Virus record (IMG/VR): IMGVR_UViG_2648501498_000017
Location: 1-8,570 of that record
Direction: 5' to 3' (one strand)
DNA from: a virus
Taxonomy: Duplodnaviria; Heunggongvirae; Uroviricota; Caudoviricetes
DNA: 8,570 bases
Below the pieces are notes generated by a model. The model did no database searches. It saw nothing but the letters and a program-made list of their open reading frames with translations, and was not told the origin of the DNA. Made by a program: the position numbers and the translations under genes. Below are positions 1-8,570 of this stretch, one piece after another; position 1 is the first letter of the stretch, and each line of letters starts with the position of its first letter.

Positions 1-383
1 ATTGTAGTTATTTTATGCATATCAATTAATCCTCGACGTAATACCTCCAGCAATTTATCTTCTATATCATTAAGATCATTTACAACATCCTGAGCAGCCG
101 AACTTAATTTATTAGCCTCCAAAAACATAGACTCTGAAATATAATAGGACATAACTTCGCAAAAAACATCGTGTCCCATTTTCTTTAATTTTCTTTTTAA
201 AACGGGATCATTAACTTCAATACAGAAATTTTGCCCATAAGAGCTTTTAAAACTCTGCTTTAGCTGTGTCCTAATATCATTAACACTCGTTCTTCTTTCC
301 GAAACCTCTTTTTTTAAAATTGCCTCAGCCATAGTTGAAACAACTCTAGAAGTTCCTGCCAGGGTCTTCAACCCATAATCCAT
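1..383 (-). CDS. Hypothetical protein, N-terminal part only (at least 127 aa; runs off the left edge of the window). AT-rich accessory gene of unknown function.
   Basis: Seen in sequence: hand translation of the minus strand gives an uninterrupted frame from ATG at 381-383 (MDYGLKTLAGTSRVVSTMAEAILKKEV...) to position 1 with no stop. It is absent from the ORF track, presumably because no stop codon lies in the window. Composition is markedly more AT-rich than the phage core genes. No family recognised. In-frame GTG (411-413) is an alternative start. Confidence 0.4.
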   Translation of the reverse strand, partial: MDYGLKTLAGTSRVVSTMAEAILKKEVSERRTSVNDIRTQLKQSFKSSYGQNFCIEVNDPVLKRKLKKMGHDVFCEVMSYYISESMFLEANKLSSAAQDVVNDLNDIEDKLLEVLRRGLIDMHKITT

Positions 384-545
384 ATCAACCTGATGATCAT
401 CGCTCTTGATCACAACATCAAAATTAATGTTCAATTTTGCAACCTTTTGTTAACTTTTATTATCCGCATCTAATTTTTATCATTAATAATGGATGACTTT
501 CAACAGATTAGCTCAAATTAGAGGGATTTCGCGCGCTCGTATCCC

Positions 546-564
546 CGCCACGCCTGCCCGCTTT
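546..564 (-). other. cos-like cohesive-end site of a P2/186-family phage (candidate)
   Basis: Seen in sequence: the minus strand reads GGCGTGGCGGGGATACGAG. From memory, 186 cos is GGCGTGGCGGGGAAAGCAT and P2 cos is GGCGAGGCGGGGAAAGCAC; the first 13 nt match my recollection of 186, the last 6 diverge. Position (beyond gene A and the tum module) and strand are as expected for a 186-like genome in this orientation. Not verified against a database. Confidence 0.4.
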
Positions 565-595
565 ATGTAGTGGTTTTCATGCACTTGCATGACAT

Positions 596-623
596 AAACA
601 AAAGCCCGCCATTCCTGGCGGGC
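596..623 (-). terminator. Rho-independent terminator-like hairpin, minus-strand sense
   Basis: Seen in sequence: GC stem GCCCGCC (604-610), loop ATTCCT, GGCGGGC (617-623). On the minus strand the stem is followed by TTTTGTTT (complement of 596-603). There is no U-tract on the plus strand. Confidence 0.45.
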
Positions 624-864
624 CTCAACTAAAACGATCCTCAAACGATCATGCGAATTCATGCGGCATAGACATGCATTGTTGCTTTATCGATCTTTTC
701 TTACTTCAAGTGAGTCCTTATGGCCTCCTGTCCACCTTGCGCTGCGCGTTCCCCCTGCCTCCCTTTGTCATAACTTAGATTTAATCATCATAAATCAAGA
801 GGTACTACACAAAGTACCAACTCACAACACTCAACAAACAGCCAATAATGAGCATAATACTAAC

Positions 865-894
865 TTGACTACTCCATAAAAAAATACGTAAACT
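865..894 (+). promoter_or_regulatory. Candidate sigma70 promoter for the 177-aa gene
   Basis: Seen in sequence: TTGACT (865-870), 18-nt spacer, TAAACT (889-894), about 45 nt upstream of the ATG at 941. Hexamers are approximate. Confidence 0.25.
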
Positions 895-940
895 ACATTC
901 ATCAACAGTATTTCTCTAAAAAAGACGGGGTCACAATTCA

Positions 941-1474
941 ATGGCTACTACCAACTGTATTACTGTACTTACTGCTCGTGGTTTAACAGAGATTTTGAAC
1001 ACAGGGGGAAGCCAAGCATGGAGACTTGACGCCAGCCATGCAGCTAAGCACGAATATTTAGTTTGTGTACAAAATTCGAGAAAGGACTGGGGATCACAAG
1101 AAGCAAAACATCATCATGCTTTTATGATCGGTCGAATCTCGGGAGTAAGCAGGGCTCCAGAAAACCCTAAACGCTGGATCATAAACATCAATTCTTATGC
1201 TGAAATTGACATCCCAGGACAATGGGATGGCAATCGGAATCCCGTTTCTTATCGCAACCTCAAAGACATTGGCATTGAGGCTGACAAGTTGGAATTTAAA
1301 GCTCTTCCCAAATTAACCCCGACTAATTCGATTGTCGATCAAGCGGGTGATGAGTACGAAGAAGAAGAAGAAGAAAATGTAGTTAAGCCGTTAACACTTC
1401 AGGAGGCAAAAGCAGGGCTAGCCCTATACTTTGGTGTTAATGAAGAAAATATTCAAATAACTATACAAGGTTAA
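941..1474 (+). CDS. Hypothetical protein, 177 aa, unknown function. Candidate accessory/cargo gene in the P2-family hotspot between gene A and cos.
   Basis: Seen in sequence: ATG-initiated ORF, transcribed opposite to the flanking phage operons, AT-rich. Contains an acidic run DEYEEEEEEN encoded by a (GAA)6 repeat. No family recognised from the sequence. SD is weak (GGGG about 13 nt upstream). Confidence 0.6.
   Translation: MATTNCITVLTARGLTEILNTGGSQAWRLDASHAAKHEYLVCVQNSRKDWGSQEAKHHHAFMIGRISGVSRAPENPKRWIININSYAEIDIPGQWDGNRNPVSYRNLKDIGIEADKLEFKALPKLTPTNSIVDQAGDEYEEEEEENVVKPLTLQEAKAGLALYFGVNEENIQITIQG
1358..1375 (+). repeat. (GAA)6 trinucleotide repeat inside the 177-aa CDS, encoding a polyglutamate run
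   Basis: Seen in sequence: gaagaagaagaagaagaa at 1358-1375, in frame. Confidence 0.9.
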
Positions 1475-1695
1475 GGCTTTTAAACCGGCATAAGTGGCCA
1501 TTACTTTTCGTTCGAAGTGGCGCTTCCGGTCTAACAAGCATCTAATAGGATTTTCGTATCTATCACAAATCCCAAAAGGTAATTTGCAGCCCATCATACG
1601 TAGCAAAACTAACGTTCGGTTAAATCTGAGCGGAAGTGAAAATAATGGTTACTGTATTTTACCCCATGACTAATGCCCCACTAAACTAGTTGTTC

Positions 1696-1745
1696 AACGT
1701 TGCTGACGTCAGAAGCAAGTTCAGACGCCAGCAACGTTTCTTAAT
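1696..1745 (+). terminator. Terminator-like hairpin between the convergent 177-aa gene and the DinI-like gene
   Basis: Seen in sequence: 15-bp stem with one mismatch, AACGTTGCTGACGTC (1696-1710) pairing with GACGCCAGCAACGTT (1724-1738), 13-nt loop, followed on the plus strand by TTCTTAAT. It overlaps the stop codon of the minus-strand DinI-like gene and may act on both strands. Confidence 0.4.
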
Positions 1746-1974
1746 GCAGCCAGCTGTCGTCTTCCCACACCTTCTGCATAATTTTCATCACTTGTTTTCT
1801 TTCTTCGTCCAGTTGCAGTCCGGTCAGTTCCACACCATTAGAGCTACCTTTACGGATACGAATTACCGCTTTGGGATACAGGGGGCGCAGATTGCGGTAA
1901 AGCTCGGATTCAAGGGCGTCCAGGGTAGACTGGCTAATTTTTTGCTCTTTATCGATCATTATTTCAATGCGCAT
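1741..1974 (-). CDS. DinI-family protein (77 aa), resembling the C-terminal DinI-like part of 186 Tum
   Basis: Seen in sequence: MRIEIMIDKEQKISQSTLDALESELYRNLRPLYPKAVIRIRKGSSNGVELTGLQLDEERKQVMKIMQKVWEDDSWLH has DinI length and the conserved ...WE..D.W C-terminus. ATG at 1972-1974 is preceded by GAGGTGA. Lies downstream of a LexA box. The ORF track's longer version (start 2046) is rejected in favour of the SD-supported ATG. Confidence 0.8.
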   Translation of the reverse strand: MRIEIMIDKEQKISQSTLDALESELYRNLRPLYPKAVIRIRKGSSNGVELTGLQLDEERKQVMKIMQKVWEDDSWLH

Positions 1975-1984
1975 AAAAGTCACC

Positions 1985-2173
1985 TCAACTGATGACATCC
2001 ATTGAGCGGCTGTATTCGTGGATTCTGATCTTTGCCATGAGTTCATCAGTCAATTCAGAAACCCACTGCAGAGCCAGCCCCTTCTCTTCATCACTACACT
2101 CACTAGCCGCTACAAGCTTAAGAAAAAAATCAATGCGCTGGAGCTTCAAAGACTCCAAAAAATAGTCCTGCAT
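1985..2173 (-). CDS. Small SOS-regulated protein (62 aa), candidate Tum-like antirepressor N-terminal module
   Basis: Seen in sequence: ATG at 2171-2173 with a strong SD (GGAGGAAAA) and a LexA box 44-59 nt upstream. Its end overlaps the DinI-like gene start by 14 nt in a different frame. The functional call is inference from synteny with the 186 tum locus. Confidence 0.5.
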   Translation of the reverse strand: MQDYFLESLKLQRIDFFLKLVAASECSDEEKGLALQWVSELTDELMAKIRIHEYSRSMDVIS

Positions 2174-2194
2174 TTTTCCTCCTATGACACCACA

Positions 2195-2260
2195 AGCAAC
2201 ACTGTATGCATAACCACTGTTTATATTTACAGTATATAATAATCTTACTGATGTAAAACG
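2195..2260 (-). promoter_or_regulatory. SOS-regulated promoter region for the tum-like operon (186 p95-like)
   Basis: Seen in sequence: on the minus strand, TTTACA (complement of 2252-2257) and TATACT (complement of 2231-2236), with the LexA box overlapping the -10 region. Spacer is short (15 nt), so the exact hexamers are uncertain. Confidence 0.4.
2217..2232. promoter_or_regulatory. LexA box (SOS box)
   Basis: Seen in sequence: CTGTTTATATTTACAG, a perfect CTGT-N8-ACAG with an AT-rich spacer, matching the consensus CTGT(AT)4ACAG. It sits just upstream of the 62-aa/DinI-like genes. Confidence 0.8.
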
Positions 2261-2326
2261 TTTTTTTACATTCATCAGCATGATATGCTTGGTATTATTA
2301 AGAGCACGAATTGTTAGCCCGCGGAA

Positions 2327-4741
2327 TTAATACAGGTTCCGCCACTGATCATCTTCCTGCAAACGCTGGTTCCGATAGAAGATACGCAGGCCTGCTCCTG
2401 ACGGAATACTGCCTCCGCGAAGGAGTAAATCGACCTCTTTCTCGCTGCCATCAAATCCTCTGGACTTCAGCTCATACACGAGCTGCAGTCGCTGATGGTC
2501 TGTAATTCGCTGTTTGTAGTCTTTACGCCGTTTCGGTTTCACCAGGCGTAACCTTGCTGCCAGTTCCCGGCGCTCTTTTTTGCTCATACTGTGCAGGTAA
2601 TCGTGCAACTCCTTGTCATCCATGCTGGTAATGTCCGTTCTGGAGTCCCCATCAGCTGATTTATCTTTCTCCTGTTGGTTCAAATTTTCAGCAAGGGGAC
2701 AGTTATTGCCACGAGTCCAAGGGGCGCAAGCGCCCTGGTCGGCAGCCGCCTCCTGAACGTCAACGGCCTTACGAACCATTTTCCACTTCACCGCATGAGT
2801 GCAGATCTTGCCCTCTGCAATGGGTGACCAGATGCCATAAATACGAATACCGTGATCGCCATAAGCGGTTGGCTCTTCGTTGATTTCATAAGCGGTTCTG
2901 ATGAGGTGATATTTACGGGGAACCAGTACGCCACCCTGCTTCATGATATAGGTGGCAAAACAACCAGCATCAGCAGCAGCCAGAATGGCATCAAGGCGCG
3001 GGTTATCCAGTACCGGCGCACCTGCTTTTTTGTCACCCTGTTGCCTTGCCGCCTGACCAGCCAGCAATCGCAGTTCACGGTAAGCCTGACGCCCCGGAAT
3101 GCCAAAGAAGCGGAATTGCTGAACACGATGCAGAGACGCCCAGGCATTAACGTATTCAGCGTTATCACGCAGGGATTTACCCGTTTCCTTGCTGATCTCC
3201 CCAGCCAGACCACGCCCGTCAATGTTCTTACTGATGTATTTCGCGATATAGCTTGTTGGCGTACCTTTGCGCGGGTTTATCAGCTCAGACTTAAAGCGTG
3301 GTCCCGTGTTATTGCCCAGCTCCTCGCGGTCTTCACGGATGGCAAACTTACGCAGTAATGCAGTGATGGCGCGGCGGTCTTTTTTACGCATGAAACACAT
3401 GAGATGCCAGTGCACAGTACCGTCATGATGCGGCTCAGCTACCCGCACGCCATACCAGCGCAACTCGGCTTTATGCATAGCCTTACGAAATGCAGCAAAC
3501 ATGCCGACCAGATAATCGCTACTTTGTCTTACCGTCGCGTTTGTCCAGGTCGGGTTTGGTCTGCCGTTATTGAGCGTGGAATGGAAACGCGACGGACAGG
3601 TGATAGTGTAGAAAACGGCACAGTCACTGCGCATTTCCGCGATAAGCTCCAGACCTTTAACACAGGCCATCATCTCATTGCGGCGATGCGCCGGGTTGCT
3701 GCTGCTGGCGTTTACCACATCTTCCATATCCAGCGTGTCGCCGTCTTCGTTCACCAGTTCATGAGAACGAAAAAACTCCAGCGACTTACGGCGCTGCTCA
3801 CGTTTATGCATCACGGCTTCATAGCTGACATAGGGGGATGCTTTTTTGCTGACCAGGCAGACAGCACGCAACTGCTCTTCCCGCCATTCGCAACGCATCT
3901 TCCATAATTTCCGATACCACCAGTCGGCACACAACATACGCGCCAGCGAACCCGGGATGAGTTCATAGGGCACTGGTTTGCGGCGGTTTCTTTTCCGACG
4001 AAGTTTCTCAAACGCAGGCGGGATAACATCCAGACGCAGGGTTTCCGCTGCCACCTTTTCCCATGTCTTGCGGATTTCTTCTGGCTTAACGTCATCGGTG
4101 GCATACAAATCACCACAAGCGTCCTCAAGACACATGCTCATATGCGCTGCTACCAGGGTGGACAGGCGTTTCACCTGATCCTGGCTCATTTCAGGCAGGA
4201 TCAGCAGACCCTCCAGCCCTTGATGGCTTGCCATAAAACGGAAAGAAACAGATAGCTGACTGTCACGTACACAATCCAGTCGCTCCAGACATGGCTTAAT
4301 CGTCTCACGCAAATAGCGGGAATAAGCCTTTGGCCTGCCCAGGCTGCTGAAGTATTCAATACGTTGCATCAGCGGCTTGCTGATATGGGAAGGCTGGGCG
4401 TTTACGTCCGCCAGAATGACCATGTCCGGATTAAAACGCTGCTGCTCATGCGCCAGCTTTGCCCGGCTAATGAGCTTATCCTGCTCCATTTCGCGCTGGA
4501 CAGGATCACGGGATTCATTAAAGAAATAACGCTCCCAGACCTGCTCACTCAGTGCCTCGCGGCGCAGTTGTTCCTGCTCGTTATCGGCAGCGTACAGAGT
4601 GATCAGGTTTGAAAGTGCAGACTCCGGCGCAACTTCCGCCGGGTCCAGATAAGGGTTAATGGCCTTTTTCGAGCCGTTCCATGAAAATGCTGCGGCGGCC
4701 TCGTTAAAGCCGCTGCAATTGTTCATATCGTCATGACTCAT
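2327..4741 (-). CDS. A: Replication initiation endonuclease gpA (P2/186 gene A family; rolling-circle HUH nickase), 804 aa
   Basis: Seen in sequence: HUH-type motif TVHWHLMCF (HWH codons at 3404-3412) and paired catalytic tyrosines [10 protein letters not shown] (3236-3250), resembling the phiX174/P2 A-protein YxxKY active site. Size matches P2 gpA (about 760 aa). The ATG at 4739-4741 overlaps the dam stop as ATGA. The GTG-initiated start at 4747 in the ORF track is rejected. Confidence 0.9.
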
Positions 4742-5595
4742 ACACACACTCTGTACACGGCAGAACTATCCACGCCACGCGAAGGATCAAATCCCAACCA
4801 GCAGCTCGGCCCGGAAACAGCAATGATTTCTGTTGCAGATTTACCCTCGCCAGCTGACACGCCGATGCTGCGTTTTGCCTTGATATAGTGGTGAGTAAAA
4901 TTGCGATACAGCGAACGAATCAGGGATGTGTCATTGTTAGAAACAATGACCGGATGTCCTTCTGATGACCGATGTTCAAGAATGGATGCCAGGTGATACT
5001 GGTCATCTTCAGTGAAACCATCAGTGTGATAGCCGGAAAACGTACCGTCATACGGCGGATCGCAATACACCACATCCCCCACCTGCAGCATCGCCAGCGT
5101 TTCATCAAAGCTCGCGCAGATAAACGTTGCCCGCTGGGCTTTCTCTGCAAATGCGCGAATTTCTTTTTCAGGGAAATACGGATTTTTATAATTACCGTAG
5201 GGAATGTTGAAATACCCGCTCTTGTTATAGCGACATAAACCACGGTAACCGTGACGATTGAGATATAGGAAATATATCGCCTTCATGAAATCAGTAATTT
5301 CAGTTGAGTAATTAAACTCCTGTCTTATGTTGTAATAAGCCAGCTCACTGTTTGCTTCCTCAAATAAAACTTTGGCACGAGATATAAACGCTTCGCAATC
5401 AGCGGCAATCTTTTTATAGAGGTTGATTAAATCAGGATTAATATCCGCAACCAGATAGCTGGGGTAATCCGTCGCCATCATCACAGCACAAGAACCCGCG
5501 AAAGGTTCAACCAGTCGCGGGCCAGCAGGAAGGTATTTTTTCAGTTCGGACATAATGGCGGTTTTATTACCCGCCCATTTCAGGATGGTGCTCAT
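4738..5595 (-). CDS. dam: DNA adenine methyltransferase (Dam/D12 class, N6-adenine), 285 aa
   Basis: Seen in sequence: N-terminal [11 protein letters not shown]...EPFAGSCAV (AdoMet-binding motif) and the catalytic DPPY in [13 protein letters not shown] at 5593-5595 with GGAGG upstream, overlapping the upstream stop as ATGA. The longer version in the ORF track (start 5655) is rejected. Confidence 0.9.
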
Positions 5596-5819
5596 ACAGC
5601 ACCTCCGTTGTAATGTTTGCCTTTCAGCTCTGCGATTTCCTGGCAGGTAATGCAAAGCTGCACTCCAGGAATGGCACGGCGGCGTGCTGGCGGAATTGGC
5701 GCTTCACACTCAACGCAAAGCACGCGGGACACGCCCGGCGTTTTGGCACGAGCAGCACGGATATGGCGTTGGCGTTCTTCTTCAACGCGCTGCTGTACGA
5801 GATCCATTGCATCAGCCAT
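5592..5819 (-). CDS. TraR/DksA-family C4 zinc-finger protein (75 aa)
   Basis: Seen in sequence: CVECEAPIPPARRRAIPGVQLCITCQE is a CxxC-N17-CxxC zinc finger typical of TraR/DksA proteins common in P2-like phages. The ATG overlaps the upstream stop (TGATG). Confidence 0.75.
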   Translation of the reverse strand: MADAMDLVQQRVEEERQRHIRAARAKTPGVSRVLCVECEAPIPPARRRAIPGVQLCITCQEIAELKGKHYNGGAV

Positions 5820-6052
5820 CAGTGGATCTCCTGCGCTTCGTTCTGGATTGCTTCAGCAGTCACACGCAGCAGTTCTGCCGCTTCGACGTGGTTTAGCTGG
5901 CGGGAGGTGATATGACACGCCAGGCTATCGAGGCGAGCAGCCATTGCTTCAGCCCTTGCCCGGCGTTCTTCCAGACGAGCCTCTGTCAGTAAAAGATTAA
6001 GACCTGCATCATCCGGTCCGGTTTTGGTCGTGAGGGTTTCAATATTACGCAT
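5819..6052 (-). CDS. Hypothetical early-operon protein (77 aa)
   Basis: Seen in sequence: ATG at 6050-6052 with SD CAGGAGAA, translationally coupled to the downstream TraR-like gene. Function unknown. The TTG start at 6058 in the ORF track is rejected. Confidence 0.55.
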   Translation of the reverse strand: MRNIETLTTKTGPDDAGLNLLLTEARLEERRARAEAMAARLDSLACHITSRQLNHVEAAELLRVTAEAIQNEAQEIH

Positions 6053-6119
6053 AAGCAATTCTCCTGAATTTAGATAAAGGGATGCCCGGCGGGTTTACGC
6101 CATTAATTTCATTAGTTGG

Positions 6120-6461
6120 TTAATTCGGCATGGTTAGCCGTCTGGGAAATAAGCTCACCACTGCACGAAAATGATTCATTGCTTTAATCAACTCCCGCTT
6201 TTCGTCAGTGGTCAGCTCATTAATGCTGATGCTATGACGTTCAGCTGGAATTTTTGCCATAAAGAATATGGCAGCCAGTGCCCGTTTATTTTGTTCATTA
6301 TTGATATCCCGTGGATCACGCATATCTTTAATAAACCGCTCAAGCTCTGACTCAATATTCAAACCAAAAACTTTCGCCCTTAACTCCGCAATATGATTAA
6401 GTCCATTCAGGCGTTCACCGGGTCTTAATGGAACAGTCGCCGCAGCGCCTTCAATAGCCAT
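6120..6461 (-). CDS. Hypothetical early-operon protein (113 aa); sits where 186 has dhr, but this is synteny only
   Basis: Seen in sequence: ATG at 6459-6461 preceded by GGGGGAA. Overlaps the end of the upstream 66-aa gene by 37 nt in another frame. Confidence 0.5.
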   Translation of the reverse strand: MAIEGAAATVPLRPGERLNGLNHIAELRAKVFGLNIESELERFIKDMRDPRDINNEQNKRALAAIFFMAKIPAERHSISINELTTDEKRELIKAMNHFRAVVSLFPRRLTMPN

Positions 6462-6625
6462 TTGTTCCCCCGTTTTTTCGTAGATAGTTCTGCCAGCAAT
6501 TCATCTTGTGAACGGCACGGATGCCAGCGTTTTCCATCCTCACCCATGATCCAGCCGTGACCGTAGTGCATTGCCGGGCTTTGCTTTACCAGCAGCGATG
6601 CAAATGATGGTTCTTTCGTCAGCAT
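6425..6625 (-). CDS. Small early protein (66 aa); sits where 186 has fil, but this is synteny only
   Basis: Seen in sequence: ATG at 6623-6625 with SD GAGGTG, 8 nt after the CII stop. The longer version in the ORF track (start 6655) would overlap CII and is rejected. Confidence 0.45.
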   Translation of the reverse strand: MLTKEPSFASLLVKQSPAMHYGHGWIMGEDGKRWHPCRSQDELLAELSTKKRGNKWLLKALRRLFH

Positions 6626-6632
6626 AAGCACC

Positions 6633-7142
6633 TCACAGCAAACCGAATGAAGCACCGAGGCCAGTCACGGTATCAACTGCACTCGCCATCGCAGGGTTAG
6701 CCTGTAAACGGGCCTGCAATGAAACAGCAGCCAACGCCATCAGTCGTGTTACAGAGTTAATGCTGCTGATAGCATCACGACGACCTGCACTGGTTTTTAC
6801 ATCGCCAGATACCGCACCTGCAGCAACACGCCCGATCTCTGCGGTTGCACTCATGACGTAATGTGGCAGTTTCTCTTTTGCCACCTCATTAATCGGTACG
6901 CATGGCAGGCAGTGAATCTGAGCCAGAAAACCATCTACCAGCGTTGAATCTTCAGTCAGATCGGTAAGCAGCCAGATTTCTGGTGCGGTTAATAAATGAG
7001 GTTGCGCTGGGTTCAACTTGTTCCGCAGAATCTGCACATTCATGCCAGCACGTTCTGCCAGTTGCACCAGGTTGTGGCGCAATGCGAATGCACGACAGGC
7101 TTCATCAAAATGTGGATGTTTGGAAACTTGGTAATCAAACAT
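6633..7142 (-). CDS. cII: 186 CII-like transcriptional activator (169 aa, HTH)
   Basis: Seen in sequence: [48 protein letters not shown]... matches my recollection of 186 CII (169 aa, N-terminal HTH) in sequence character, length and position after apl. ATG at 7140-7142; the TTG start at 7148 in the track is rejected. Identity is from recall, not a search. Confidence 0.75.
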
Positions 7143-7174
7143 GGTCAATGCCTCTGATGTATTTCAGAATCGAA

Positions 7175-7396
7175 CTAATTAAGGTTTAGATTGCATTCTG
7201 AAAGCGCATCAACGGTCATTGCTGCTATGTTGATCATCACTTTTTCGCGTTTTTTATCTTTGCGCAGACGGTGACGGATAAGGCGTCCATCAGCCAACAT
7301 GTCATTGATGGTATCGATGGATAGCCCTGTCAGCTCGCTATAGCGTTCAATAGTCACATGAGGGGTGGTAAGAGTGATTGAAATGTTAGGTCTCAT
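7175..7396 (-). CDS. Apl/Cox-like small DNA-binding protein (excisionase/repressor of the lysogenic promoter), 73 aa
   Basis: Seen in sequence: first gene of the minus-strand operon, divergent from cI, with an HTH-like segment ([23 protein letters not shown]) and SD GAGGAA. Function inferred from position and size (186 Apl 87 aa, P2 Cox 91 aa). Confidence 0.6.
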
Positions 7397-7468
7397 GATG
7401 CAACATTCCTCGTTTAATGATGATTAATCAGGACGAATACGGATCGTTTGTATTTTGTGAACACCATA

Positions 7469-7497
7469 AACATACGATCGCACAGTGAAATCGTCAA
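7469..7497 (-). promoter_or_regulatory. pR-like lytic promoter for the apl-cII...A operon
   Basis: Seen in sequence: on the minus strand, TTGACG (complement of 7492-7497), 17-nt spacer, TATGTT (complement of 7469-7474). It lies next to the cI start, as in the 186 face-to-face switch. A GATC (7476-7479) sits in the spacer. GTGAAC (7457-7462) and GTTCAC (7505-7510) flank it as an inverted repeat. Confidence 0.45.
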
Positions 7498-7521
7498 GAT
7501 AAAAGTTCACTTGGAGTGACC

Positions 7522-8091
7522 ATGAATTTGGAGAAAGGCGGACGAGGCGCTATAGAGCGCATGGTAGAAGCTTATGGATTCAAGACTCGACAGGCGTTGT
7601 GCGATCATTTAGGAATCTCTAAAAGTACACTCGCCACACGCTACATGCGTGACTCATTCCCAGCAGAATGGGTAATCCAGTGCGCCCTTGAAACAGGCAC
7701 CTCGCTTAATTGGCTCACAACCGGGCATGGTTCAAAGCAAACTTCAGGTAATACAAATACTATGGAAGTTGCTAAATATGTATTATCTGATGGGGCCTTG
7801 TGTGAAGACGGTTTTTATATTTTCGATAGAGAATTTCTACCGTCGGCATTCAAGAATCTTTTTGTAATCACAGATAATAATTCTGAATTTATTTGTGATA
7901 AGGAATTTGATGATATACGTGATGGTAAATGGGTAATAAGTATTGATGGCGAAATAACGATCCGTGACATTACTCGTTTACCCGGTGGAAGAATCTTCGT
8001 CGAGGGTGGAAACAGAGCCTTCGAGTGCAAGATAGAAGATGTTGAAATAATTGGGAAAATTATAAGTTTAACAATTAAGTACGTTAGGTAA
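7522..8091 (+). CDS. cI: 186-type CI immunity repressor (189 aa)
   Basis: Seen in sequence: N-terminal HTH region (GFKTRQALCDHLGISKSTLATRYMRDSFPAEWVIQCALETGTSLNWL) and a roughly 190-aa length typical of the 186 CI family (186 CI is 192 aa; P2 C is only 99 aa). Divergent from the apl operon. ATG at 7522 with GGAG 5 nt upstream; the GTG start at 7516 in the track is rejected. Confidence 0.85.
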   Translation: MNLEKGGRGAIERMVEAYGFKTRQALCDHLGISKSTLATRYMRDSFPAEWVIQCALETGTSLNWLTTGHGSKQTSGNTNTMEVAKYVLSDGALCEDGFYIFDREFLPSAFKNLFVITDNNSEFICDKEFDDIRDGKWVISIDGEITIRDITRLPGGRIFVEGGNRAFECKIEDVEIIGKIISLTIKYVR

Positions 8092-8106
8092 TACCGGGAG
8101 GAAACT

Positions 8107-8298
8107 ATGCTTGGTAAGGTATTTTTTGTGGTTTTATCATGCTCTTTGTTATTAAACCCACTAACTACCTATGCTAAAAATTATCCTTGTTCTGGGAAAA
8201 AGGGAGGTGTCTCTCACTGTACCTCCGATGGAAAGTTCGTTTGCAATGATGGAACTATTAGTAAATCAAAAAAAATCTGTACTAAAAACTCGCGATAA
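8107..8298 (+). CDS. Small predicted secreted protein with four cysteines (63 aa); moron-like gene after cI
   Basis: Seen in sequence: strong SD (GGGAGGAAACT) 15 nt after the cI stop. Hydrophobic N-terminal signal-peptide-like segment ([19 protein letters not shown]) followed by a 40-aa mature part with Cys at four spaced positions. Occupies the place where the integrase would be expected. Confidence 0.5.
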
Positions 8299-8478
8299 AT
8301 TTTGCTTTTATACCTGCGCCTAATATAACAATGAGCCGCAGGCTAACCGCAAAAGTCACATACTCACATAGCAAAAAATAGCTAACTTCATTATGGCTTC
8401 AGTGAGATGTATGGTCGCAGGATTTCATACATTGACACTGGTTATACATACAGTAAAAATGCTCTCTACTGGAGTAAT

Positions 8479-8510
8479 GCCAGTCAGTTAAGCAACTGAC
8501 TGGCTCTTTT
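8479..8510 (+). terminator. Rho-independent terminator
   Basis: Seen in sequence: perfect 10-bp stem CCAGTCAGTT (8479-8488), loop AAGC, AACTGACTGG (8493-8502), followed by CTCTTTTT. Confidence 0.65.
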
Positions 8511-8570
8511 TCGGGGCTGTGGGGTATTTCCAGGGCCTCTCCTTTACCACTCTCGGGAAGGCCCTTTCCC

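Follow-up and report, generated by a model that had tools for sequence, protein, structure and literature searches.

In phage 186 the integrase gene (int) lies directly after the repressor gene cI, the cI stop overlapping the int start in the annotation of U32222, and there is neither a ydcA gene nor a separate int control module. In HP2, a P2-like phage of Haemophilus, a 191-aa CI of the same type is followed at once by a YdcA homologue, and int stands further downstream, behind another secreted-looking open reading frame (ORF) of 254 aa between ydcA and int. YdcA of E. coli K-12 (b1419; YdcA family, PF27300; PRK10040) has a signal peptide, then a mature peptide of about 35-40 aa with the motif ...F.CNDG..S.SKK.C. 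Here we describe the right end of a stretch of 8,570 nucleotides (nt), positions 1 to 8,570 of the IMG/VR record IMGVR_UViG_2648501498_000017 (hereafter the window), which holds the early region and the immunity region of a 186-like E. coli prophage of the P2 family. A sequence-only reading of this DNA had cited the 186 order, correctly as the annotation shows, and had observed that cI is followed here by a small secreted-looking protein and a terminator, with no int. No int gene is indeed present within the window. Our analysis indicates that the window very probably comes from a widespread 186-like prophage in which the insertion sequence IS4 entered between positions 8474 and 8475, inside the hairpin that holds the int ribosome-binding site (RBS), and that the assembly broke inside IS4, leaving int beyond the window.

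The features at this junction are:

8475-8570, minus strand: right inverted repeat (IRR) end of IS4, with the terminal repeat TAATGCCAGTCAGTTAAGCA
8479-8511, plus strand: inward-facing IS4 hairpin (8479-8504) followed by TCTTTTT (8505-8511), from the fold and the reference IS4
8459-8474, plus strand: truncated int RBS hairpin, made up of the 5' arm ATGCTCTCT, the loop ACT and GGAG, the first four nt of the 3' arm
8464-8474: predicted copy of the IS4 target duplication, CTCTACTGGAG, 11 bp, its length taken by analogy with a complete insertion in strain RMDEC465

Comparison with complete genomes located the end of the prophage DNA precisely. From 7400 to 8474 the window is 99.8-100% identical to a prophage present in 509 of 5,426 complete E. 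coli genomes (those covering at least 80% of the query), including REL606 and BL21(DE3), and in all of the top complete genomes the homology ends at 8474. Identity to REL606 is 99.0% over 1731-8474, and the prophage adjoins rcdA/ybjJ in most of the genomes examined. The int ATG stands 11 nt beyond the equivalent of 8474 in REL606/BL21 and in the 509 genomes. REL606 reads CTACTGGAG up to the junction point and GGCATTTTTTATG past it, which is the int start; in the run to int, CTACTGGAG continues as GGCATTTTTTATGGCAGTACG. The sequence-only reading had named an int directly downstream as the finding that would speak against it. This is the arrangement in the relatives, and in the window's lineage it is interrupted by IS4.

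Only 8299-8474 (176 nt) of the 272 nt after ydcA is prophage DNA. The remainder, 8475-8570, is IS4: it shares 99-100% identity with IS4 copies in two lambda-type records, its end TAATGCCAGTCAGTTAAGCA is the right end of the complete reference copy, and the minus strand of 8488-8568 encodes the last 26 aa and the stop of the IS4 transposase, with ERAFPRVVKERPWKYPTAPKKSQSVA before the stop as at the InsG C-terminus. Terminal repeat, internal hairpin and transposase C-terminus are all identical to those of IS4. The sequence-only reading had described about 270 bp of non-coding DNA that closes the lysogenic operon with a strong terminator. The hairpin and U-run are real, but the DNA is not one phage spacer. 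The hairpin, GCCAGTCAGTT-AAGC-AACTGACTGGC (8479-8504), has a perfect 11-bp stem with 6 GC pairs, a 4-nt loop and a folding free energy (dG) of -18.7 kcal/mol; the surrounding 131-nt region folds with z = -4.7. A GC-rich stem-loop followed by UCUUUUU gives 8479-8511 the form of an intrinsic terminator, and transcription would be expected to terminate there. A generic terminator scan by itself was not above chance (3 found versus 1.4 +/- 1.4 expected). The same hairpin occurs in the reference IS4 copy and is a constant feature of the right end of IS4; it is IS4 DNA and not phage DNA, and it does not mark the end of the lysogenic operon. At the IS4 left end, an inward-facing hairpin with U7 (L003 3340-3392, minus strand; dG about -22.8) stands immediately before the transposase ATG, and a promoter-like site has its predicted start inside this hairpin. 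From its sequence, IS4 appears to be insulated against outside transcription at both ends.

Assemblies close to the source show both the intact and the interrupted state. A Logan contig (L017) differs from window 1-8474 by one mismatch and has an intact int. A 121-kb contig of an NCBI assembly (L018, GCA_001266375.1) differs from window 1-8568 by two mismatches and ends 94 nt inside IS4, and a Logan unitig from SRR6185890 (L020), with a base-identical junction, runs 26 nt into IS4 before it ends. The number of IS4-end matches reaches 31-32 per genome in some E. coli. Since the source-like contigs end inside this multicopy element, the window edge is an assembly break in a repeat. Beyond the window's other end, L018 extends into portal, terminase, capsid and lysis genes, which are P2-type late genes, and the prophage is therefore not a remnant on that side. 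With these late genes in place and int intact in L017, the earlier suggestion of a remnant has to be given up. On the sequence evidence, the "missing int" is an IS4 insertion plus an assembly break, and in the source int would lie about 1.4 kb beyond the window. The insertion is likely to be very recent and simple, because outside it the prophage and an intact one share an identity of 99.99%. Window-type junctions had no matches among GTDB representative genomes and JGI metagenomes.

The position of the insertion agrees with other IS4 sites. Four were inspected (the window, L218, L003 and L232), and all have an A-run, a hairpin and a T-run. Three of them read:

L232, 2528-3955 (yfjF/bamE site, strain RMDEC465): AAAAA-GGTGCTCATTGAGCACC-TTTTTT; the 11-bp duplication has the loop at its centre
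L003, 2006-3431 (lambda-type record): GCACCAGAAATGGTGC, then a T-run
Window site: AAAAAT-GCTCTCTACTGGAGGGC-ATTTTTT

The RMDEC465 insertion is complete, and its 11-bp duplication, GCTCATTGAGC, is centred on the hairpin loop. L218 (IMGVR_UViG_2541047905_000004) has an independent second IS4 in this int hairpin, inserted with a 1-nt shift and in reverse orientation. The target type was derived by direct comparison of the four sites and not from an AAA-N20-TTT consensus. The int hairpin thus looks like a typical IS4 target and, with a second independent insertion at the same hairpin, like a hot spot for IS4.

The DNA just before the insertion carries what we predict to be a control module of int. 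When diverged relatives are compared, roughly 100 nt behind ydcA (as far as about 8395) show no homology, and the final ~89 nt ahead of int stay together with int. The predicted sites, together with the reference site in the same prophage, are:

8407-8432, plus strand: CII-type half-site pair ATGTAT-N14-ATACAT, from a pattern scan
8432-8460, plus strand: sigma-70-like int promoter (10/12 matches to consensus), with -35 TTGACA at 8432-8437, a 17-nt spacer and -10 AAAAAT at 8455-8460
8436-8455, plus strand: LexA-box-like palindrome CACTGGTTATACATACAGTA (CTG-N10-CAG), between -35 and -10
7116-7142, plus strand: ATGTTTG-N13-CAAACAT at the pE of this prophage, a CII site homologous to the one annotated at 186 pE

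The half-site pattern occurs twice in the window versus 0.04 expected, the other copy being the pE site; the half-site centres at 8407-8432 are 19 nt apart, compared with 20 in 186. In most of 61 unique upstream variants, as read from the listing and not formally counted, the upstream half-site keeps a fixed distance, and the spacer between the half-sites varies. The predicted int promoter is conserved across E. coli, Klebsiella and Hafnia relatives. Based on the -58/-38 geometry of 186 pE, the int transcript is predicted to start near 8467, downstream of the 5' arm of the hairpin, which fits the -10 at 8455-8460. The predicted LexA site CACTGGTTATACATACAGTA matches the LexA consensus TACTGTATATATATACAGTA at 16 of 20 positions and resembles the annotated LexA site of 186 p95. 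The pattern used to scan IMG/VR forced the LexA-box core, and its conservation is supported independently by the alignment of relatives chosen through the YdcA protein, in which the core is invariant.

In REL606 the intact hairpin is ATGCTCTCT-ACT-GGAGGGCAT-TTTTTT-ATG (dG -10.5); as RNA it reads ATGCUCUCU-ACU-GGAGGGCAU, then U6 and AUG, and its 3' arm is the int RBS. In the window, the rest of this region (GGCAT, T6 and the int ATG) is displaced by IS4. Of 43 unique leaders, taken from IMG/VR and other loci, 42 have the RBS within the 3' arm of their minimum-energy hairpin (median z -4.4), and 31 have a U-run. At least ten different stem sequences occur among these leaders with the hairpin kept, which amounts to covariation. 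An intact int control module is found in L001 at 10008-10088. We infer that int is expressed from its own promoter, with CII as activator and LexA as repressor, and that read-through from cI-ydcA would be terminated or translationally silenced by the int hairpin. By analogy, the module resembles lambda pI, where int has its own promoter with sites for the phage establishment activator, and the promoter of integron integrases, where an SOS box stands at int; PMC3108266 reports LexA control of the latter. The proteins and sites are unrelated: the CII in question is of the 186 type and not lambda CII, and the regulation here is predicted from sequence. Our literature search returned nothing relevant on LexA- or CII-controlled int in P2-like phages, and the int control region is apparently undescribed, an absence from the searched literature being no proof of novelty.

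Upstream of this module lie the repressor gene and the small gene that follows it:

7516-8091, plus strand: cI repressor gene, 191 aa from GTG; PF07022 (E 2.8e-33) and PF16452 (E 8.7e-27)
8096-8101, plus strand: Shine-Dalgarno sequence GGGAGG of the ydcA-like gene, within the 15-nt cI-ydcA spacer, read from the sequence
8107-8298, plus strand: ydcA-like gene, 63-aa precursor, with a predicted signal peptide (8107-8175) and a 40-aa mature part (8176-8295)
8299-8406, plus strand: variable spacer, an empty "cargo slot" between ydcA and the int module, from comparison with diverged relatives

The sequence-only reading had described a 63-aa signal-peptide protein tightly coupled to cI, and the ORF and its position are borne out. 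The ATG stands 15 nt past the cI stop (8089-8091), with GGGAGG in the gap. The N-terminus resembles a Sec signal, with K4, a hydrophobic run and T-Y-A ahead of K24, as judged by eye and from the N-terminal helix of the AlphaFold model. The homology search that had been called for places the protein in the YdcA family. It scores 116.1 bits against NF007463 (NCBIfam; cut-off 93) with residues 5-63 covered, and PF27300 "YdcA" is precomputed for the identical protein and for all close homologues. A Pfam set without PF27300 gave no match, noise aside, even at E <= 10. With NF007462, which we take to be the K-12 type of YdcA, the score is 68 bits, below the cut-off of 118; the protein fits the sister model NF007463 instead and, unlike K-12 YdcA, it is phage-borne and coupled to cI. 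RefSeq names it "YdcA family protein" or "hypothetical protein", and the exact 63-aa sequence is listed in 24,624 public assembly blocks.

The mature 40 aa contain four Cys and nine K+R versus two D+E (isoelectric point 9.6; 4.26 kDa). In an alignment of 20 homologues C28, C38, C46 and C58 are invariant, as are P27, S29, K32, G33, G34, F44, D48, G49, S52, S54 and K55 and also Ala-23 at the predicted cleavage site. The motifs PCSGKKGG and CNDG..S.SK are invariant or nearly so, and the signal peptides diverge; ...F.C.DG..S.SK..C is the C-terminal part of the invariant YdcA motif. Comparison of the mature core (32 codons) with three diverged homologues gives 17.5-18 synonymous and 2-4 non-synonymous differences, that is, a proportion of synonymous differences (pS) of 0.85-0.87, which is saturated, and a non-synonymous proportion (pN) of 0.03-0.05. 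The signal peptide is only 27-38% identical to those of the same homologues. The low pN against the high pS in the mature core means that selection on the 63-aa ORF is strongly purifying and that this is a real gene. In the AlphaFold model residues 30-60 form a small, confidently predicted beta-hairpin domain (predicted local distance difference test, pLDDT, 84-91). We predict from the sequence that the product is a periplasmic peptide of the YdcA family, which is probably disulfide-bonded. An alternative reading of VLSC (Cys-12) as a lipobox was rejected: by the general rules for lipoboxes this Cys is too near the N-terminus, it is unconserved in homologues, and the conserved cleavage-site Ala is at 23. 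A DUF3761-like permuted motif found no supporting match and was dropped. The most likely class of role, by inference, is that of an envelope-acting factor in lysogenic conversion or exclusion. A deletion mutant of the chromosomal ydcA is reported to be sensitive to 3-hydroxypropionate, and acid induction is cited in the same work (PMC7642389).

The place of the gene after cI is also conserved. All close relatives have cI, 15 nt, ydcA, 186 nt and int. The diverged 186-like prophages (from E. coli, Klebsiella and Hafnia) always have ydcA directly 3' of cI, with a cargo gene between ydcA and int. Given this shared post-cI place, an accessory gene expressed with the repressor is a reasonable idea. 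The cargo is a KAP-family P-loop NTPase of 443 aa in the E. coli and Klebsiella relatives (L022-L026 4198-5529) and a 347-aa protein without Pfam matches in Hafnia (L027 4247-5290); the ydcA-int slot is thus a second cargo site, empty in the window's lineage. The HP2 homologue (L004, NC_003315.1, 2486-2668, minus strand) has 60 aa, is unannotated in the deposited record, lies between cI and orf1(S)/int, and has an ATG that overlaps the cI stop. Phage S2 (Z71579.1) gives the same tblastn match at the same coordinates as HP2. The ydcA-like gene has no match in 186/P2. Elsewhere, YdcA homologues occur in Moraxella phages (Mcat, in the structural region), Acinetobacter phages, a few plasmids and chromosomes. 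On plasmids they are rare, with 58 among 72,556 records, and gave no informative sign of a connection with conjugation; the UniRef name "Conjugal transfer protein" was for that reason not used as evidence. The best 80 matches in a scan of IMG/VR with the YdcA alignment were near-identical E. coli prophages only.

Searches of PDB by profile and by Foldseek both gave Dis2 (Lpg0823; 7MUC/7MUD chain AN) as the top match of the YdcA domain, Foldseek with a probability of 0.97 and 38-39% identity. A YdcA-like motif (CS.K.GG..YC...G..VCN.G..S) is present in each of the two disulfide-pinned lobes of Dis2. The profile match had E = 6e-5 when signal peptides were included and 0.076 with mature peptides only; the initial value came largely from the aligned signal peptides, and we have therefore downgraded the homology to suggestive. 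Dis2 is a protein of the outer-membrane cap in Legionella's Dot/Icm system for type IV secretion, where it lies beneath the outer membrane and contacts lipoproteins; it is described as Legionella-specific and without structural relatives (PMC8486379, PMC12716638). It is dispensable.

Several points weigh against an IS4 insertion with int just beyond the window. Only 96 nt of IS4 are in the window, which could also represent a solo end or a truncated copy; searches of GTDB genomes and JGI metagenomes for the predicted far junction gave no matches; and the junction, whether window-type or L218-type, is absent from the complete E. coli genomes. As regards the small gene, PADLOC returned no match to its product, and the only functional evidence for the YdcA family is the 3-hydroxypropionate/acid phenotype of the chromosomal ydcA (PMC7642389). 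That the far side of IS4 was never observed would also suit a history in which IS4 insertion was followed by an IS4-mediated deletion or rearrangement, with int and the attachment-site side lost or moved and the prophage locked in. Every contig with the junction stops inside IS4, and the many IS4 ends per genome would serve as a recombination substrate. However, contigs that end in a multicopy insertion sequence are the normal outcome of short-read assembly, and apart from the insertion the prophage matches an intact one at 99.99% identity; we regard such a deletion as unlikely. The view of the sequence-only reading was that the lysogenic operon natively ends in a strong terminator, in an int-less remnant or a differently organised element. 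It accounts for the window without int and for the hairpin and U-run at 8479-8511, and intact relatives do have a terminator-like hairpin of their own right before int, so some insulation between cI-ydcA and int is real. Nevertheless, the 8479-8511 hairpin lies within 96 nt of 99-100% IS4, the near-identical IS4-free prophage L017 and the 509 complete genomes have int, and late genes are present in L018, which makes this view highly improbable. The gene order does differ from that of 186, as the label "differently organised" implied, but an int-less type it is not, int standing 11 nt on in the relatives. Ends of insertion sequences are often mis-joined, and the junction is absent from the complete genomes in the collection, as would be expected if it were an assembly chimera and IS4 occupied this site in no real genome. 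We give this next to no credence: the junction is base-identical in the window, in L018 and in the independent unitig L020, the site is of the IS4 target type, and a second independent IS4 sits 1 nt away in the other orientation.

A similar weighing applies to the ydcA-like gene, which the sequence-only reading had called moron-like. It is accessory, coupled to cI and absent from 186, as that term suggests, but an own promoter and terminator were not found. A classical autonomous moron, expressed independently of cI transcription, would be in keeping with the absence of the gene from 186/P2 and with the different placement of its homologues in Moraxella Mcat, Acinetobacter phages and chromosomes. 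Yet the 15-nt gap after cI holds the Shine-Dalgarno sequence only and leaves no room for a promoter, the ATG of the HP2 homologue overlaps the cI stop, and the sole promoter-like match nearby (8111-8140) is inside the gene; no terminator-like site was detected on the plus strand from 8299 to 8458, that is, between ydcA and the int hairpin. An autonomous moron is thus improbable. With neither a promoter nor a terminator of its own, the ydcA-like gene is best seen as an accessory gene embedded in the cI transcription unit and not as a classical autonomous moron. Transcripts from pL/pE most likely span both cI and the ydcA-like gene, which has a strong RBS of its own for translation, so its product would be made in lysogens.

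Returning to IS4 insertion as the favoured explanation, we propose the following sequence of events. The lysogeny side of this prophage runs in the order cI, ydcA-like gene, short cargo slot, int control module and int, and in this strain lineage IS4 landed 11 nt before the int ATG. On the far side of IS4, int would keep its RBS and ATG, together with the duplicate of CTCTACTGGAG, and lose its promoter. Transcripts from pL/pE or from the int promoter would enter IS4 antisense to the transposase, meet the hairpin and U-run at 8479-8511, and stop. Unless there is outward transcription from IS4, int would be severed from every upstream promoter and hence probably silenced. Such a prophage would excise and integrate poorly and would keep immunity and the expression of cI and ydcA.

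Taken further, these predictions can be joined in a wider reading, which we offer tentatively as one possibility. In it, int has been uncoupled from cI and placed under a composite module, with CII acting at establishment, LexA timing excision to the SOS response, and an often terminator-like hairpin over the RBS; this hairpin would hide the int RBS in read-through transcripts and be absent from transcripts of the int promoter. The same hairpin would attract IS4. In the place vacated behind cI, the translationally coupled periplasmic YdcA, highly conserved and maybe a distant relative of the Dis2 lobes, could act on outer-membrane complexes in lysogenic conversion or exclusion. The reading covers a large 186-like subgroup, with 66 sequence variants in IMG/VR and in sequenced phages of Klebsiella and E. 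coli.

With 186 itself the prophage shares several features of the immunity region. CI has the same two Pfam domains (Phage_CI_repr and Phage_CI_C) and faces an apl/cII operon, with the pE-type CII site at the cII start (7116-7142) matching the annotated 186 site. It is 189 aa in the relatives' annotation, is named "phage repressor protein CI" in REL606 and others, and has an identity of ~50% or less to the CI of sequenced phages. The difference lies between cI and int, where the ydcA-like gene, the cargo slot and a separate int control module are found; int does not directly follow and overlap cI as in 186, since ydcA, a 186-bp or cargo-filled spacer and the promoter-like module intervene. 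With the REL606 prophage the window shares the gene order A, dam, traR, DUF2732, DUF5347, fil, cII, apl-like, cI and ydcA-like. The two differ at int, which in REL606 stands 11 nt past the window's switch to IS4, and at the hotspot left of gene A, occupied by retron St85 in REL606 and by a 177-aa ORF and others in the window. The minus-strand genes of the window are A, a dam methylase, a TraR/DksA-type gene, cII and the apl-like gene. The remaining features are:

2327-4747, minus strand: replication endonuclease A
6633-7148, minus strand: cII (PF06892)
7175-7396, minus strand: apl-like gene
941-1474, plus strand: 177-aa ORF in the left cargo hotspot
~434 to the left edge, minus strand: N-terminus of a 254/271-aa gene, in the left cargo hotspot

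A strong LexA-box-like site, CACTGTTTATATTTACAGTA, lies at 2215-2234 (17/20 consensus, 3 mismatches; 0.01 expected by chance), just upstream of two genes, one for 62 aa and one DinI-like. It recalls the LexA box of 186 p95 ahead of the Tum/DinI-like module, and the region appears to correspond to the LexA-controlled p95-tum module of 186, split here into two small genes. Window 1-1700, between the DinI-like gene and the portal gene, is a variable cargo hotspot. It holds a retron St85 reverse transcriptase and effector in REL606, RelA/SpoT-domain, ParA and ComF genes in CFSAN061762, and the 177-aa ORF plus two further genes in the window (in L018, DUF7946 is matched weakly). PADLOC gave no match to the left-end ORFs of the window; these genes may be uncharacterised defence cargo. 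Rfam at gathering thresholds gave no matches over the whole window, and no tRNA or tmRNA genes were found in it.

In conclusion, the parts that had appeared anomalous are of known kinds, namely IS4, a 186-like prophage of the REL606/BL21 type and the YdcA family, and the anomaly is explained by ordinary causes (insertion of IS4, a contig that broke within a repeat, and a protein family already named) and not by a new type of element. The 186 paradigm of cI overlapping int fails for its much commoner REL606/BL21-type relatives, which are present in ~9% of complete E. coli genomes. By separating int from its promoter at a preferred, terminator-like hairpin, IS4 would provide a natural route to the lock-in of a common E. 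coli prophage. Alongside the repressor, these prophages would make a conserved peptide that is predicted to be secreted, of a family that is widespread and found in the lysogeny modules of at least two bacterial families. The ydcA-like gene, carried by both BL21 and REL606, is a cheap and well-defined target for experiments.

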